NCBI GenBank assembly: GCA_001775995.1
Contig: MEZH01000007.1
Location: 200,714-264,713 of the forward strand
Length of the DNA: 64,000 nucleotides
Source: Candidatus Bathyarchaeota archaeon RBG_16_48_13
Lineage (GTDB): Archaea > Thermoproteota > Bathyarchaeia > RBG-16-48-13
Reading direction: 5' to 3'
Below are positions 911 through 60,913 of this stretch, one piece after another. The translations under genes and the position numbers were made by a program. Every line of letters begins with the position of its first letter. The first letter of the stretch is position 1. Below the pieces are notes generated by a model, which did not search any database, had not been told where the DNA came from, and saw nothing but the letters and a program-made list of their open reading frames with translations.

Positions 911-1045
911 GCCTCTTCATAAGGAAACCCCTTTTGAATGTGATATGCAAAATAGATTCTTGAGCTTTTGGACGTGACAAGTTATTGTTCCCCATAAACT
1001 TGAGGATTGCTATATTCAAGATCATTGACAAGATTCTTTGGAGAA

Positions 1046-1705
1046 ATGTCCCGAGGGGTATCCCATTTGATTGGTGACGAAATAGTTGCGAGATTAAGGG
1101 AGTATTTCCCAATAAGATGGTCGCAGCCCACAAACGGATTTGGCAGTTTAATCCGGACAATTCTCTCTCAAAACACAAACTTCAGAAATGAAGATTCAGC
1201 GTATAAGACCCTTGACAAAAGGATTGGTGTTAGTCCAGAAGCGTTAGCCAGTGCAAGTATTGATGATGTTATGGATTCCATAAGATCAGCGGGACTCTAT
1301 AGAAACAAGGCTCCCCGAATAGTCGAATTGGCAAGAATCGTGCTTGAGAAATATTGCGGTGATCTGTCGTCACTCTTGAAAAAGAACTACGATGAAGCCA
1401 AGGAAGAGTTAATGACACTGCCAAGCGTTGGTATGAAAACAGCTGATGTCTTCTTGCTCTTTCAGGGCAATAAGGCGGTCATCCCGATTGACACCCACAT
1501 TTTCAGGATTTCGAGAAGGCTAGGCTTTGCTCCTAAGACCTCCAATCATGATGAGGTCAGGAGAGCGTTGGAGGCAGTATTTAGACCAGAAGACTACCGT
1601 GACATTCATCTATTGCTGATACAATTGGGAAGGGAGGTCTGCACGGCCAGAAAAGCCAAGTGCATTATTTGCCCTTTGGCAGACATCTGCCCCAAACTGA
1701 TATAA
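1046..1705 (+). CDS. nth: Endonuclease III (HhH-GPD glycosylase with 4Fe-4S motif)
   Basis: ILSQNT, LPSVGMKTAD, IPIDTHIFRISRRLG and CTARKAKCIICPLADIC. ATG 1046 preferred over the ORF-track start at 1007. Confidence 0.9.
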   Translation: MSRGVSHLIGDEIVARLREYFPIRWSQPTNGFGSLIRTILSQNTNFRNEDSAYKTLDKRIGVSPEALASASIDDVMDSIRSAGLYRNKAPRIVELARIVLEKYCGDLSSLLKKNYDEAKEELMTLPSVGMKTADVFLLFQGNKAVIPIDTHIFRISRRLGFAPKTSNHDEVRRALEAVFRPEDYRDIHLLLIQLGREVCTARKAKCIICPLADICPKLI

Positions 1706-1722: not shown

Positions 1723-3210
1723 TTAGCCTTTTATCACAGCCAAGGGCACAAGTCTGGCAACCTTCGTCGCTATTCTGAGATCGTGGCTGACTTGGACTAC
1801 TTCGTCGACATTCTTGTATGCTGGATCGGCTTCTTCGGCCAAGACAACTGATGAGGCTGCTCGTACAACCATCCCTCGACTCTCAAGCTCCTTCTTGACC
1901 TCATTCCCCCAGAAACTCTTCTTGGCCATGGTTCGGCTTAGCATTCGACCAGCTCCGTGAGCAGTGCTCCCCCAGGTAATATCCATGGCATGTGGTGCGC
2001 CGACCATGACCCAGGAGCTGGTTCCCATGGATCCAGGTATTATTACTGGCTGTCCGACAGATCGATATGCGGAGGGTATTGCTGGATGTTCTGGTGGAAA
2101 AGCTCGAGTAGCTCCTTTTCTATGAACGATGACCTTTTTGATGCTACCATCAACAGCGTGTTCCTCGATCTTTGCTATATTGTGCGCAACGTCATAAACG
2201 ACTTTTAAGCCCATTTTGTCTGCTTGGGCATGGAAAGCCTGTTCGAAGGATTGACGAACCCAATGAGTGATCGCTTGTCTATTGCTAAATGCAAAGTTGA
2301 CCGCGCTGGCCATTGCCTTATAGTAATCTTCAGCCTCATTACTGCTAGCTGGAGCACAAGCCAATTCTCTATCTGGGAGTGAGATTTTATACTTGTCTAT
2401 GGCGCGTTCCATAACTTGGAGATAGTCGCTGCAAATCTGGTGACCAAAACCTCGACTTCCCGTATGAATCATCACCGTAATCTGATCAGGTTCCATCAAA
2501 CCGAAGGCTTTCGCAGTTTGGGTGTCGAAGATCTTGTCGATTTTTTGAATTTCAACAAAATGATTGCCACTGCCCAAGGTTCCGATTTGCGATTCACCTC
2601 TATCTTTTGCGGTCTTGGAGACTTTCTCTGGATCTGCGTTCTTCATGAAGCCGTTCTCTTCACAGTAATTCGGATCTTCAGGCCAACCCAGACCTCTTTT
2701 CTCAATTAACCAATTAACGCCTTCTAGAGCAATCTTGTCCAGCTCAGCTCCACTAACTCTGAAATCTTTTCGGCGACTTCCCAAGCCACTCGGTACGTTT
2801 TGAAAGATTGAGGTTGCCAAATCGGCAAGTTTTGGTCGTATGTCATTCAGGGTTAGGTTTGTGGAAAGAAGTCGGACACCGCAGTTTATACTATTGGAGG
2901 GCTAGCTCACAATATTTATATCGTATCCGACTCCGCCCGGACTAATTACTCCCGATTCATAATCGGTAGCTGCTACTCCACCTATGGGGAAACCGTAGCC
3001 TTCATGACCGTCCGGCAAAACAATACTGGATTTGTAGATACCCTTGAGGTGCGCCACATTCACTCCTTGCTCTATGGTCCTGTCGAGCTGCATTTTTTTT
3101 AGAAGTTCTTCGTTGGCAAATATCGTGCAAGGCACTCTCATGCCCGATCTATACGAGGGTGGCAGACGCCAAGTGTTCTTATCGATTCGTTCTAGGGGAA
3201 AATGAGACAT
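1723..3210 (-). CDS. rtcB: tRNA-splicing ligase RtcB, join(3210..2916, 2885..1723), 485 aa after intron removal
   Basis: N-part [27 protein letters not shown]; C-part [61 protein letters not shown]. Both parts are in one frame, separated by a 30-nt insert containing TAG. Confidence 0.95.
2886..2915 (-). other. Candidate 30-nt BHB mRNA intron in rtcB
   Basis: Central helix AUAU/GUAU, two AAA bulges, intron stem UAUUG(U)GAG/CUCCAAUA, and a 12-bp exon-exon helix. Cleavage after the second bulge nucleotide regenerates GAT ATA AAC TGC. Confidence 0.9.
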
Positions 3211-3575
3211 TATTACCCATCCTAAAAGAACTAGAAAATGGACTTCGATTTTAACCTATTCGAATCAGCTTGTCATTTCTTGTATGTGGTCTAGGGTAGT
3301 TCAAGATCCAAGAATTGTTGCATCCAGCTGAGGTTTCTCGTTTCTTTCTTGATATCATAATGGTGAAGGGAAGGACTTATGCTCAGAGCCAAACTGCCGT
3401 TCAAGGCATCTAAATATCTCGCATTCAGAATATTTTTCTTTCTAAGAAGTGTTCAAATGCGCAGAGTTCTGACTCAGGGGGGAAACTTTGCCCCGCGAAG
3501 TAGGTGGCAGAAGTCCCATTTCCTTTTTGAGAGTCTTTGGACAAAGACTAGATCATGAAATGAAGCAATGCCGTG

Positions 3576-4020
3576 TCAGCGTTTCAAGGACTGGTGCACA
3601 TTCCTCCCACAACTATTTCTGAGAGAACCCAGTATTATCCTTCTTTTCAGACGAAGCTCTTGATCCTTGAGATACTGATGGCGCTCAATTGACCTGTACG
3701 AAAGAACAAGGCGCTCTGCAACAAGTTCTCCCAAAAAAGCTTGTTGCATGTCCTTCTCAAAAAGCAACCCATCAATAGTGACTAGGGAAACATTGAATTG
3801 ATTCTCCTTCTCGAAGGAAAATCGCACTAGCTTCTGATAGTCTTGCAGGACTGCAGCTATCCAGAGCCAACCTTTTCCGCTCTGGGTTAACGCGTAAAAA
3901 AAACCGTGGCCACAACCTTATACTCTGCAAGTTTCTTTTGCAACATGCGACTTTCTAGAGGAACTTCGTCCTTCTGCATATCAACCGATTCCTCGGAATC
4001 AAAGTCCTGCGATCTTCCAT
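3576..4020 (-). pseudogene. Probable decayed hypothetical gene between archease and rtcB
   Basis: An ATG overlaps the archease stop (TAATG at 4022-4018). Protein-like segments lie in three frames, one joined across a T8 run (3896-3903). No family recognised with confidence. Confidence 0.35.
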
Positions 4021-4454
4021 TATACATCCAGAATGAACCTTAAGGTCGTCTTCCCTTTTCTTTCGGAAATCGCCATTCTGTGATACGTTATGGCCTTGAC
4101 GCCAACTCTCGACGGGTGCCGTTCTCCATCATAAGTTTCCCCATATATTGTGGCCTCCAGATGGAAGATTTTCCACCGCATTTCTATTTTTTCTACTTGA
4201 AATCTTGAGTACACGTTGTTGTCTATTTCGAATTTTAGGATTAATTGTTCCAGCCACTTATATAGGAGTTCATGTTTGTCTCTTGCCTCTACAACTATTG
4301 TCTCTCGTTTCGTTGGCTTCACAGTGCTAGTATCAATCATGACCTCGAACAAAGCCAATGCAGCGTCTTCGAAAGATTTTCCGATGGTTGGGCCCCAAGC
4401 TTCCACATATACATCGGCTGTATGTTCAAGAAATCTAAATCCCACTTGAATCAA
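4020..4454 (-). CDS. Archease (RtcB cofactor)
   Basis: FRFLEHTADV N-terminus, VKAITYH and C-terminal ILDV. Lies upstream of rtcB. Confidence 0.95.
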   Translation of the reverse strand: MIQVGFRFLEHTADVYVEAWGPTIGKSFEDAALALFEVMIDTSTVKPTKRETIVVEARDKHELLYKWLEQLILKFEIDNNVYSRFQVEKIEMRWKIFHLEATIYGETYDGERHPSRVGVKAITYHRMAISERKGKTTLRFILDV

Positions 4455-5220: not shown

Positions 5221-6537
5221 CTATATCTTTTGTCCTGGTTCGACTTTCGTTGTTATCTCCTTTACGACGCCGGCTGCGATGGTAGTCCCCATATCTCTAA
5301 CTGCAAATCTGCCAAGCTGGGGTATGTCTGAGAATGCCTCTATTGCTATTGGATGGAGAGGCTCCAGCTTGACTAGGGCGCCGTCACCTGTCTTAAGGAA
5401 GGCGGGTTTTTCCTCTACTACTTGACCGGTCCTTGAATCGATCTTCTTTATGAGTTCTGAGAACTTGCAGGCGACTGTTGCTGTGTGGATGTGAAGGACC
5501 GGGGTATATCCTTGAGCAATAGCCGTTGGATGATGTATCACTATGATTTGACCAATGAATTCTTTCGCAACTGTAGGCGGATTTTTCAGTGGCCCTGCAA
5601 CATCGCCCCTATGGATTTCATTCTTGGCTACACCTCTGACGTTGAAGCCTATGTTATCGCCTGGAACAGCTTGGTTGATGCGTACGTGATGGGTCTCAAG
5701 AGATTTGACTTCGCCTTTGACATTGGACGGCATGAAGACTATAGAGTCGCCTTCTTTGACAATGCCTGTTTCGACTCTTCCCACGGGGACCGTGCCTATT
5801 CCGGTGATGGTGTAAACGTCCTGAATTGGAAGCCTCATGGGTTTGTCGATTGGTTTTGGCGGAACTTGAAGCGCATCCAGGGCTTGGATCAATGTTGGGC
5901 CCTTATACCAAGGCATATTCTCGCTTTGCTTCACCAAGTTATCTCCTAACCATCCGGATATGGGGACGAACGATATCTTACTTGTGTCATATCCGACGGT
6001 CTTAAGGAGTTTATCGATCTCTGCTTTGCACTCATTATATCTTTCTTGGGACCAATTGACAGATGGATCATCCATCTTATTTATTATCACAACCATCTGG
6101 CCAACACCTACAGTTCGAACCAAGAAAGCGTGTTCTCGAGCCTGACCTCCAGGAGCTATGGCGGTCTCGAACTCTCCTTTCTTCGCGGAGATTGTCATTA
6201 GACTTATGTCTGCCTGACTGGCCCCCGTGATCATATTCTTGATGAAGTCCCTGTGACCCGGGGAATCGATGATGGTGAAGAAGTACTTTGGAGATTCGAA
6301 TTTCCAGAAGGATAGGTCTATCGTGACCCCTCTCTCACGTTCTTCTTTCATCTTGTCCATTATCCAAGCGAATTTGAAAGACTCTCCCAGACCTGTCTTC
6401 TTTGACTCTTCTGAAAGGCTAGCCATGGCTCTCTCGTCTACATAACCTGTGAGGAAAAGGAGATGCCCCATAGTTGTTGATTTCCCATGGTCTACGTGAC
6501 CGTTAACGACGATGTTAAGGTGCGGTTTCTCGCTCAA
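5221..6537 (-). CDS. tuf: Elongation factor 1-alpha
   Basis: GHVDHGKST, ERERGVTID, DSPGHRDF and NKMD. Confidence 0.98.
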   Translation of the reverse strand: MSEKPHLNIVVNGHVDHGKSTTMGHLLFLTGYVDERAMASLSEESKKTGLGESFKFAWIMDKMKEERERGVTIDLSFWKFESPKYFFTIIDSPGHRDFIKNMITGASQADISLMTISAKKGEFETAIAPGGQAREHAFLVRTVGVGQMVVIINKMDDPSVNWSQERYNECKAEIDKLLKTVGYDTSKISFVPISGWLGDNLVKQSENMPWYKGPTLIQALDALQVPPKPIDKPMRLPIQDVYTITGIGTVPVGRVETGIVKEGDSIVFMPSNVKGEVKSLETHHVRINQAVPGDNIGFNVRGVAKNEIHRGDVAGPLKNPPTVAKEFIGQIIVIHHPTAIAQGYTPVLHIHTATVACKFSELIKKIDSRTGQVVEEKPAFLKTGDGALVKLEPLHPIAIEAFSDIPQLGRFAVRDMGTTIAAGVVKEITTKVEPGQKI

Positions 6538-38681: not shown

Positions 38682-39502
38682 TGGTTGAAGTCACCCTCAT
38701 AACAAGGGTCTATGGCCCTTATTCAGAACGAGTTCTTCGTTACTTAACGATGGCTATGAAATCTCTCTCTTCAGACCTGAGACTGAAATCTGAAATTCTC
38801 AACGTATCGAAACGGGGATTTGTGCAGATATTAGTGAACGGTGAAGATGAAGAAATAGCACTAAACTACATCAGAGGCAAATTCGGGATAGCCCTTCAAG
38901 CATTGAGTGAGAAGTCAATTGGCGTGAATACGGTTGGCAGGATCGTTGATTCGGGCAAGGTAGGCTATGGCTTGTACTTGGATCTAGGCTTGACATCCAG
39001 AGAGTATTCAGATGCATTGATTCCTCTCCGTACTTTGAGGGATCAACTCGTTGGCAGAGAGAACATGTCGATCCGCGGACTAATAAGGGCATACGCTCTT
39101 TATGATGACCTCCCTCTATCGATCGAAATCTCAAAGATAGACTCAGAGAAGAGGGAGATAACAGCAAAGCTGACAGATAGACAGAGGCGAACGTACAGAC
39201 GATGGTTGAAATCAGGCTTGGAAAGAGTCATCGTGACTGGAACTTTTCATGAGGAATTGAAAAAGGCGTTGGCAAGAACTGGCCATTCGAGGGATATTGT
39301 TAGAATAGATTCTTTGGGTTTGTTAGAACATGTGATCGTCTGCAAGAGTGGAACTGAGGCACCAGGCCTGATCGCTGCACTGGGACCATGTTTTCCACGT
39401 GTACCTCTTCATGCCCTAGTTCCTTCCAAGATTGCGACAGACAAAAAGGTCTTGAACATGGTGGGCCGGGCCGGACTCGGACCGGCGACCTCTGCCTTGT
39501 AA
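38681..39502 (+). CDS. DUF2110-like protein
   Basis: GRIVDSGKVGYGLYLD, LIPL..LR.QL, ERV..TG and LGLLEH..CK.GT.APG. The 3' end overlaps tRNA-Val antisense. Confidence 0.75.
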   Translation: MVEVTLITRVYGPYSERVLRYLTMAMKSLSSDLRLKSEILNVSKRGFVQILVNGEDEEIALNYIRGKFGIALQALSEKSIGVNTVGRIVDSGKVGYGLYLDLGLTSREYSDALIPLRTLRDQLVGRENMSIRGLIRAYALYDDLPLSIEISKIDSEKREITAKLTDRQRRTYRRWLKSGLERVIVTGTFHEELKKALARTGHSRDIVRIDSLGLLEHVIVCKSGTEAPGLIAALGPCFPRVPLHALVPSKIATDKKVLNMVGRAGLGPATSAL

Positions 39503-39554
39503 GGGCAGCTTCAGGCCCAACTCAGATATCCTGACCAGGCTAGACGACCGGCCC
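39459..39554 (-). tRNA. tRNA-Val(UAC) with an 18-nt intron at 25/26 (39510-39527); CCA encoded; C at position 55
   Basis: GGGCCGG/CCGGCCC acceptor, anticodon arm CUGCC-CU UAC AA-GGCAG, and central helix CAGG/CCUG with bulges AU|A and AA|G. Confidence 0.9.
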
Positions 39555-39661: not shown

Positions 39662-39800
39662 TGGCGCCGGGGGTGGGATTTGAACCCACGCGGGCTTCCG
39701 CAGACTGTTTCAACGGCCCACAGGCTTTCAACCCTAGGTGGCTAGCAGGCTTGGGCTAAGCTTGTTCAATCTGCCCCCTACCAGACTAGGGCACCCCAGC
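39662..39800 (-). tRNA. tRNA-Ser(GCU) with three introns: 29/30 (39751-39770), 37/38 (39727-39742), variable loop (39696-39710); CCA encoded
   Basis: GCUGGGG/CCCCGGC acceptor and G73. After removal: CAGGC-CU GCU AA-GCCUG and variable arm GGGCC-GUU-GGCCC. Each insert folds as a BHB. Confidence 0.88.
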
Positions 39801-60811: not shown

Positions 60812-60913
60812 GCGGCGGTCGCGAAGCCAGGCCAAACGCGGAGGACTCAAGATCGCCCATAAGAAATCCTCTCCCGCAGGGGTTCGCCGGTTCGAATCCG
60901 GCCCGCCGCACCA
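60812..60913 (+). tRNA. tRNA-Leu(CAA) with a 14-nt intron at 37/38 (60852-60865); CCA encoded
   Basis: GCGGCGG/CCGCCGC acceptor, A73, GAGGA-CU CAA GA-UCCUC and a long variable arm. Confidence 0.92.

Follow-up and report, generated by a model that had tools for sequence, protein, structure and literature searches.

A predicted 30-nt tRNA-type intron interrupts the RNA ligase gene rtcB in a lineage of Bathyarchaeia

How does an archaeon make the RNA ligase RtcB from a gene that stops, in frame, just before the codon of its active-site cysteine? The question is raised by a stretch of 64,000 nt (the window) on contig MEZH01000007.1 of Candidatus Bathyarchaeota archaeon RBG_16_48_13, in which rtcB is encoded on the minus strand. 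The genome assembly has 849 kb in 16 contigs and is 75% complete; all coordinates given here are window positions. We think, with a probability of roughly 0.8, that the single rtcB found in this assembly is interrupted by a 30-nt tRNA-type bulge-helix-bulge (BHB) intron, that this intron is a passenger or selfish element, and that RtcB is needed to produce RtcB. Very probably, a cell could make new ligase only once existing ligase has rejoined the ligase's own message. The parts of the gene, as we read them, are the following.

3210-1723, minus strand: whole rtcB gene, including the insert.
2916..3210, minus strand: rtcB exon 1, 98 codons plus 1 nt, from the ATG at 3210 to ...GAT ATA A; covers positions 1-49 of the Pfam RtcB profile.
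2886..2915, minus strand: predicted 30-nt BHB intron, with cleavage assumed after the second nucleotide of each bulge; same insert in L042 and L164-L168.
2902..2904, minus strand: in-frame stop codon TAG in the apical loop of the predicted intron (TAA in L042 and L167/L168).
1723..2885, minus strand: rtcB exon 2, from AC TGC GGT... to the stop codon at 1725-1723; begins with the active-site Cys codon and covers positions 50-426 of the Pfam RtcB profile.

Without splicing, the frame runs from the ATG at 3210 to the TAG at 2904-2902 and gives an open reading frame (ORF) of 102 aa that ends before the metal-binding cysteine. In the active-site motif D-I-N-C, it is the Asn codon that is interrupted. 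Removing 2915-2886 in silico joins GAT ATA A to AC TGC GGT and yields a protein of 485 aa that reads ...GYDINCGVR... across the junction. Coverage of the Pfam RtcB profile is then unbroken (49|50 at the junction, with nothing lost or duplicated there), and the spliced protein has no indel relative to intron-less homologues. A first-pass annotation of this DNA had proposed the same arrangement. The minus-strand letters that it quoted match the sequence exactly, re-reading the sequence recovers its 30-nt insert with an in-frame UAG in the apical loop, and ORF translation together with the Pfam profile agree with both of its products, the full enzyme upon excision and the truncated one without it.

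The pre-mRNA around the insert can be drawn as a 3-4-3 BHB adjoining a 12-bp exon-exon helix. The predicted elements of this fold are listed below.

2918..2921, minus strand: central 4-bp helix, exon strand AUAU; pairs with GUAU at 2888-2891 (4 pairs, paired in all sequences compared).
2888..2891, minus strand: central 4-bp helix, intron strand GUAU.
2915..2917, minus strand: 5' bulge AAA, predicted to hold the 5' splice site.
2885..2887, minus strand: 3' bulge AAA (ACA in L164 and L166), predicted to hold the 3' splice site.
2892..2914, minus strand: intron hairpin of 5 bp, one bulged nucleotide, 3 bp and a 6-nt loop; 8 pairs, none of which varies.
2923..2934, minus strand: exon-exon helix, 5' strand, Gly-Val-Gly-Tyr codons; 12/12 pairs in all carriers.
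2868..2879, minus strand: exon-exon helix, 3' strand, Gly-Val-Arg-Leu codons; A2872 is G in L042, where the pair is kept as U-G.

On its exon side the BHB is closed by the single pair G2922-C2884, followed by a 4-nt internal loop, UGCG (2883-2880), and then by the 12-bp helix; on its intron side (h') there are 5 bp, a 1-nt bulge and 3 bp. The minimum free energy (MFE) fold, at -26.2 kcal/mol (z -2.5), is predicted to contain the 12-bp helix and the intron hairpin. This helix, which the first-pass annotation had placed at 2934-2923/2879-2868, stands both in the MFE fold and in the pairing of every carrier. The bulged nucleotide of the hairpin is U2909 in the window and C in L042; it is presumably A in P0004, as judged from an ORF ending in IES, this insert being known only from the ORF tail IES*. 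Because TATAAA is repeated directly at the two junctions, more than one cut position fits the window genome. In L164 and L166 the ACA bulge gives D-I-N-C only if the cut follows the second or third nucleotide of the bulge. Sequence alone is only moderately better than chance; the case is made by the comparative data.

The same 30-nt insert is present in L042, L164, L165, L166, L167 and L168, which come from separate ENA and JGI metagenome assemblies. A search with the truncated ORF also retrieved three protein clusters of exactly 102 aa, with 94, 83 and 77% identity and with the ends GYDIN-IVS, GYDIN-IES and GYDIN-IAS. L042 is the most distant copy. Its spliced ORF and that of the window are both 485 aa long and share 81.7% of their amino acids without a gap. 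Synonymous sites between the two are saturated (proportion of differing synonymous sites, pS, 0.80), and the proportion of differing nonsynonymous sites (pN) is 0.10 in both exons. The low pN extends to the codons that lie between the junction and any downstream start, including that of the essential cysteine. In the insert itself 27 of 30 nucleotides are identical, and the three differences affect the bulged stem nucleotide and the loop, where TAG becomes TAA and a stop is kept.

The pattern of change follows the predicted fold. Over the six sequences (five of them distinct), all 125 of 125 pair cells hold standard pairs. Of the 11 variable columns, ten fall at unpaired positions (hypergeometric P 3e-4) and one changes a U-A pair to U-G. 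The window and L042 use the same codon at 11 of the 12 codon positions that form the helices, compared with 42% of the codons for the same amino acids gene-wide (P 6e-4). The exon-exon helix has its 12 pairs in every carrier, whereas the same register gives only 4-10 of 12 (mean about 7) in 155 intron-less rtcB genes, which shows that codon usage in the carriers is tuned to form this helix. The comparative evidence confirms that the insert is real, and indicates that its RNA structure is under selection.

We propose the following path to a functional message. The exon sequence GAU-AUA-AA would contribute the 5' bulge and one side of the 4-bp helix; the 3' end of the intron, GUAU-AAA, would contribute the 3' bulge and the other side. 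Each bulge would be cut by EndA. The two halves of the mRNA would be clamped by the 12-bp helix that the Gly-Val-Gly-Tyr codons form with the Gly-Val-Arg-Leu codons, as the body of the tRNA does in tRNA splicing. Pre-existing RtcB, with archease, would then join the 2',3'-cyclic phosphate and 5'-OH ends, and the 30-mer would be released, probably as a circle. Unspliced mRNA would give only the 102-aa fragment without the cysteine. Since the Cys-bearing part would be missing from it, each cell would need inherited RtcB protein to make more.

The genome context fits an organism that needs this pathway. There are 27 predicted tRNA genes, most of them with predicted introns, which would make EndA and RtcB indispensable. 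The gene of the RtcB activator lies close by.

4020..4454, minus strand: archease gene (PF01951, E 5e-42), about 0.8 kb upstream of rtcB and on the same strand.

Archease is likewise near rtcB on the contigs of relatives. In the same order, five of five relatives encode two paralogs of EndA (about 157-195 aa), and we take this to fit the two-subunit type of broad specificity. A two-subunit EndA type has a broad substrate range (PMC5829648).

Several points weigh against our interpretation. The analysis shows the sequence, its compatibility with the structure, its conservation, the tuning of codons and purifying selection, whereas cleavage, ligation, the clamping role of the helix and any physiological effect are inferred. 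EndA gave no PF01974 match and no credible tblastn match in the 75%-complete assembly; a weak tblastn match (E 0.011) lies inside the gene of RNA polymerase A' and is spurious. The exon-side flank is relaxed and departs from the textbook hBHBh' form. The central helix of the MFE fold is one register off (UAUA/UAUA), and the z-score of the fold reaches only -2.5. Hence, when the first-pass annotation called the BHB strict, it was right in that 25 of the 25 listed pairs are standard, but slightly generous given the 1-bp closure on the exon side, the 4-nt loop and the register shift. Finally, no double-sided compensatory change was seen within the 30-nt clade. This clade is shallow except for L042, presumably too shallow for two-sided covariation.

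The intron is rare among close relatives. None of the 37 rtcB genes found among 40 sampled relatives from the order and the class had an internal stop. A pattern scan of 401 species genomes of the class (131 genera), which required AAYTGYGGNGT after a gap of 14-60 nt, found an insert of that length at the rtcB site in one genome, that of the window. A scan of metagenome DNA, in which 120 of 120 loci were uninterrupted, is uninformative on this point, as its pattern ended in TGCGG and the downstream Leu-Arg CTGCGG of intron-less genes also satisfies it. The six carriers of the 30-nt insert form one clade in the RtcB tree (100/100), nested among intron-less sequences of Bathyarchaeia. This suggests a single, fairly recent gain of the intron.

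Other inserts occupy the same position in distant lineages. L169, whose nearest named relatives are Hadarchaeales, has an insert of 29 nt at the D-I-N/C site (L169:465-545), and L170, whose nearest named relatives are metagenome-assembled genomes of Nitrososphaeria, has one of 38 nt (L170:2276-2345). Both are unrelated in sequence to the 30-nt intron, lie at the identical position, have AAA bulges and use the GAY-AUA codons of the exon in their central helix. In L169 this helix is ACAU/GUGU, which indicates that complementarity, and no direct repeat, maintains the pairing. L184 (1440-1515), also of Hadarchaeales, carries a 31-nt intron at D-I-N/C that is homologous to that of L169; the inner stems of the two differ by a compensatory change (CAGC/GCUG versus CAGG/CCUG). 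The first-pass annotation had suggested looking in relatives for same-site inserts with covarying stems: the inserts were found, and true compensatory pairs were seen only between these two Hadarchaeales sequences. The three intron families at D-I-N/C share a common layout of a 5-bp stem, one bulged 5' nucleotide and a second stem.

The D-I-N/C intron may be common in Hadarchaeales, judging from gene lengths. Among the best 120 matches to exon 2 of L169, about 17 are 375-408 aa long instead of about 484 aa, as expected for gene calls that contain exon 2 only. Hadarchaeales also have a second rtcB intron site, ...DGHQGY|GFPIGG..., with inserts of 29-30 nt at L184:1353-1382 and L185:1461-1491 that can adopt a 3-4-3 BHB-like fold with a GGCU/GGCU central helix. 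L184 has both introns and L185 only this one.

Inteins use nearly the same target. Two relatives, one of the same order and one of the same class, have rtcB inteins of about 496-500 aa (G004, locus L182, C11:90700-93800; G025, locus L183, C27:3400-6400). These sit exactly at GYDIN|C...VVSN|CGVR, 1-2 nt from the intron site, and to within that distance they bear out the first-pass view of the D-I-N/C junction as the RtcB intein site. The same intein start occurs in several protein fragments from metagenomes of Nitrososphaerota and Bathyarchaeia. In addition, a metagenomic rtcB (L117, plus strand, about 5407-5480) has TGA at the active-site Cys codon, which could reflect a selenocysteine RtcB, a sequencing error or a pseudogene.

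The presence of sequence-unrelated introns at an identical site in Bathyarchaeia, in a Nitrososphaeria-like lineage and in Hadarchaeales is the basis for a bolder hypothesis. ORF-less BHB mini-introns might be mobile elements that home in on D-I-N/C in rtcB, inserting repeatedly, for example by EndA/RtcB reverse splicing into the ligase mRNA followed by recombination, and the dependence of the ligase on itself might act as an addiction or as a bistable switch. We regard this as possible but doubtful. No homing-endonuclease gene was seen beside rtcB in the window. Its convergent neighbour (1007-1705, plus strand) is an HhH-GPD / endonuclease III-like DNA glycosylase gene that is not recognisable as a homing endonuclease. 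The pairing of glycosylase and rtcB is conserved on the contigs of relatives in the 30-nt clade and is probably plain synteny. On the other side, the 0.8 kb between archease and rtcB (3211-4019) contain only an 83-aa ORF (3827-3576, minus strand) with no Pfam match, and in relatives this gap holds other genes (a kinase-like gene, TrmO).

The first-pass annotation had read the intron as an autoregulatory device, in which the supply of RtcB is coupled to splicing capacity and competes with the tRNA introns, as in XBP1/HAC1. Several observations are as this predicts: RtcB would be needed for its own synthesis, all carriers retain a stop (TAG or TAA) in the loop, so that unspliced mRNA cannot give full-length protein, most tRNA genes bear introns, and archease is adjacent. 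However, the feedback would be positive. A shortage of ligase would lower the synthesis of ligase and be amplified instead of corrected, which is not homeostatic. In the other 400 sampled species genomes of the class the pattern scan saw no insert of 14-60 nt at the site, and the 37 rtcB genes found in the sampled relatives have no internal stops, hence no general need for such a device is evident. Moreover, different introns recur at a site that inteins also use, which is the pattern of selfish elements; different BHB introns at one site in three lineages fit a passenger or selfish element at least as well as autoregulation. We thus consider a regulatory device unlikely. We favour a passenger because the feedback is positive, the insert is rare in the class and intervening elements recur at one site. 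We judge that RtcB depends on RtcB because a passenger or selfish intron lodged where it cannot be deleted, in a splicing gene that the cell cannot do without, and not because a regulator was built for the purpose.

The gene might be read without splicing if ribosomes hopped over the insert, taking off at AUA 2919-2917 and landing on the AUA 30 nt downstream, at 2889-2887. The TATAAA repeat of the window would let such a programmed bypass give the same D-I-N-C product, and, as in T4 gene 60, the gap contains both a stop and a hairpin. The relatives speak against it. In L164 and L166 the codon that follows the landing AUA is CAC; hopping there would yield D-I-H-C, at the cost of an Asn that hardly varies among some 155 RtcB genes. 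The same-site inserts of Hadarchaeales have GUGU and offer no matching AUA landing codon, and the inserts of other lineages at this site, with 29, 31 and 38 nt, shift the frame. The variant motif, the frame shifts and the missing landing codon together disfavour both bypass and readthrough. The tuned 12-bp exon-exon helix would have no role in hopping, and we know of no documented translational bypassing in archaea. We find this explanation very improbable.

Equally improbable is that the gene is broken or split, i.e. that it is a pseudogene, encodes two polypeptides (102 aa and about 365 aa) or is an assembly artefact. Gene callers do give two ORFs in every assembly, and a second copy could have gone unseen in a genome that is 75% complete. 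The first-pass annotation had named an artefact or an intact second copy as grounds for giving up the intron; the same insert occurs in six independent assemblies, and one rtcB was found. The values of pN (0.10) and pS (0.80) hold in both exons, including the 21-85 codons, among them that of the essential cysteine, that precede any downstream start. A pseudogene is thereby excluded, and an enzyme of two polypeptides is made less likely. The start of the downstream ORF varies among relatives (307, 353, 365 and 376 aa), the insert is far more conserved than synonymous sites, and an organism with introns in most of its tRNA genes needs RtcB. Recoding of TAG (pyrrolysine, selenocysteine or reassignment) is rejected by the 194 of 529 long ORFs that end in TAG and by the TAA of L042 and L167, and an intein or its remnant by an insert of 10 codons with an internal stop, no intein motifs and DNA unlike the ends of the G004 and G025 inteins.

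In the window genome, a loose genome-wide scan for other BHB-interrupted protein genes gave 253 candidates and a strict one 14, among which rtcB ranked first; no other was confirmed in the strict scan, which needs the canonical 3-4-3 motif and misses relaxed introns. The remaining strict candidates read mostly as gene boundaries or out-of-frame matches. Three were plausible and fail Pfam continuity, one of them lying inside an intact 411-aa M20 peptidase gene. The cbf5 gene of this genome shows no interruption. Among tRNA genes, a locus at 60812-60913 (plus strand) is called by ARAGORN as 'tRNA-???' with a 4-nt anticodon without intron mode, and as tRNA-Leu(CAA) with a 14-nt intron in intron mode. 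A predicted tRNA-Val(GAC) with a 58-nt intron (39662-39800, minus strand) adjoins tRNA-Val(TAC) at 39459-39536.

A close known parallel comes from Desulfurococcales and Sulfolobales, whose cbf5 pre-mRNA has a BHB intron (Watanabe 2002, as cited in PMC7714728; Yokobori 2009, PMC2738675). This was the only additional archaeal BHB intron reported before the 5'-untranslated region (UTR) case of HVO_1309 (Schwarz et al. 2020, PMC7714728). Both cbf5 and rtcB have a short ORF-less BHB intron in the coding sequence, and both hosts are TACK-group archaea rich in tRNA introns. In both, EndA is presumed to cut and the tRNA ligase to rejoin, and the distribution is patchy and clade-restricted, with gain and loss. 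The two differ in that the host gene of the rtcB intron is the ligase of the pathway itself, in another lineage (Bathyarchaeia), and that the intron lies in an active-site motif that is also an intein site, flanked by a 12-bp exon-exon helix of tuned codons. Splicing of cbf5 has RNA and in-vitro evidence, whereas that of rtcB is predicted from sequence.

Other systems share some of these traits. The mRNA of Haloferax volcanii HVO_1309 has a BHB intron in its 5' UTR (Schwarz et al. 2020, PMC7714728); as predicted for the rtcB mRNA, it is a substrate of EndA that is neither tRNA nor rRNA. Its intron lies in the untranslated leader, where excision restores no frame, while that of rtcB lies within codons. 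RtcB inteins (in Thermococcus/Pyrococcus, and in G004 and G025 with about 500 aa) share with the intron a target within 1-2 nt, interrupt the most conserved rtcB motif and have to be removed for an active enzyme. Unlike the 30-nt insert, which has a stop codon and no intein motifs, they are translated and removed at the protein level. In XBP1/HAC1, cut by IRE1 and ligated by RtcB or Trl1, a small mRNA intron is also excised by a protein endonuclease at stem-loops and the ends joined by a tRNA ligase, and splicing alters what is translated. Here the endonuclease is IRE1 and not EndA/TSEN, the RNA motif is another, the stress switch is demonstrated, and the ligase is not encoded by the spliced mRNA.

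Full-text literature searches found no paper describing an rtcB intron. To our knowledge this is the first BHB intron of rtcB in Bathyarchaeia, and it would be an independent gain at a recurrent site. Among the papers that could be searched, enzyme-spliced BHB introns in archaeal coding sequences are documented for one gene, cbf5 (PMC7714728, PMC2738675). A well-supported second such gene would be rtcB, which encodes the ligase of the splicing pathway, so that expression of RtcB would presuppose RtcB, inherited as protein. Because gene callers routinely split genes of this kind, the annotation of these genomes wrongly shows RtcB as partial or as absent. If an mRNA is to be spliced in the manner of a tRNA, it may need a long exon-exon helix for which synonymous codons have been tuned. 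That inteins as well as BHB introns are drawn to one stretch of a few nucleotides in rtcB, in several phyla, has a bearing on the spread of archaeal introns that lack an ORF.

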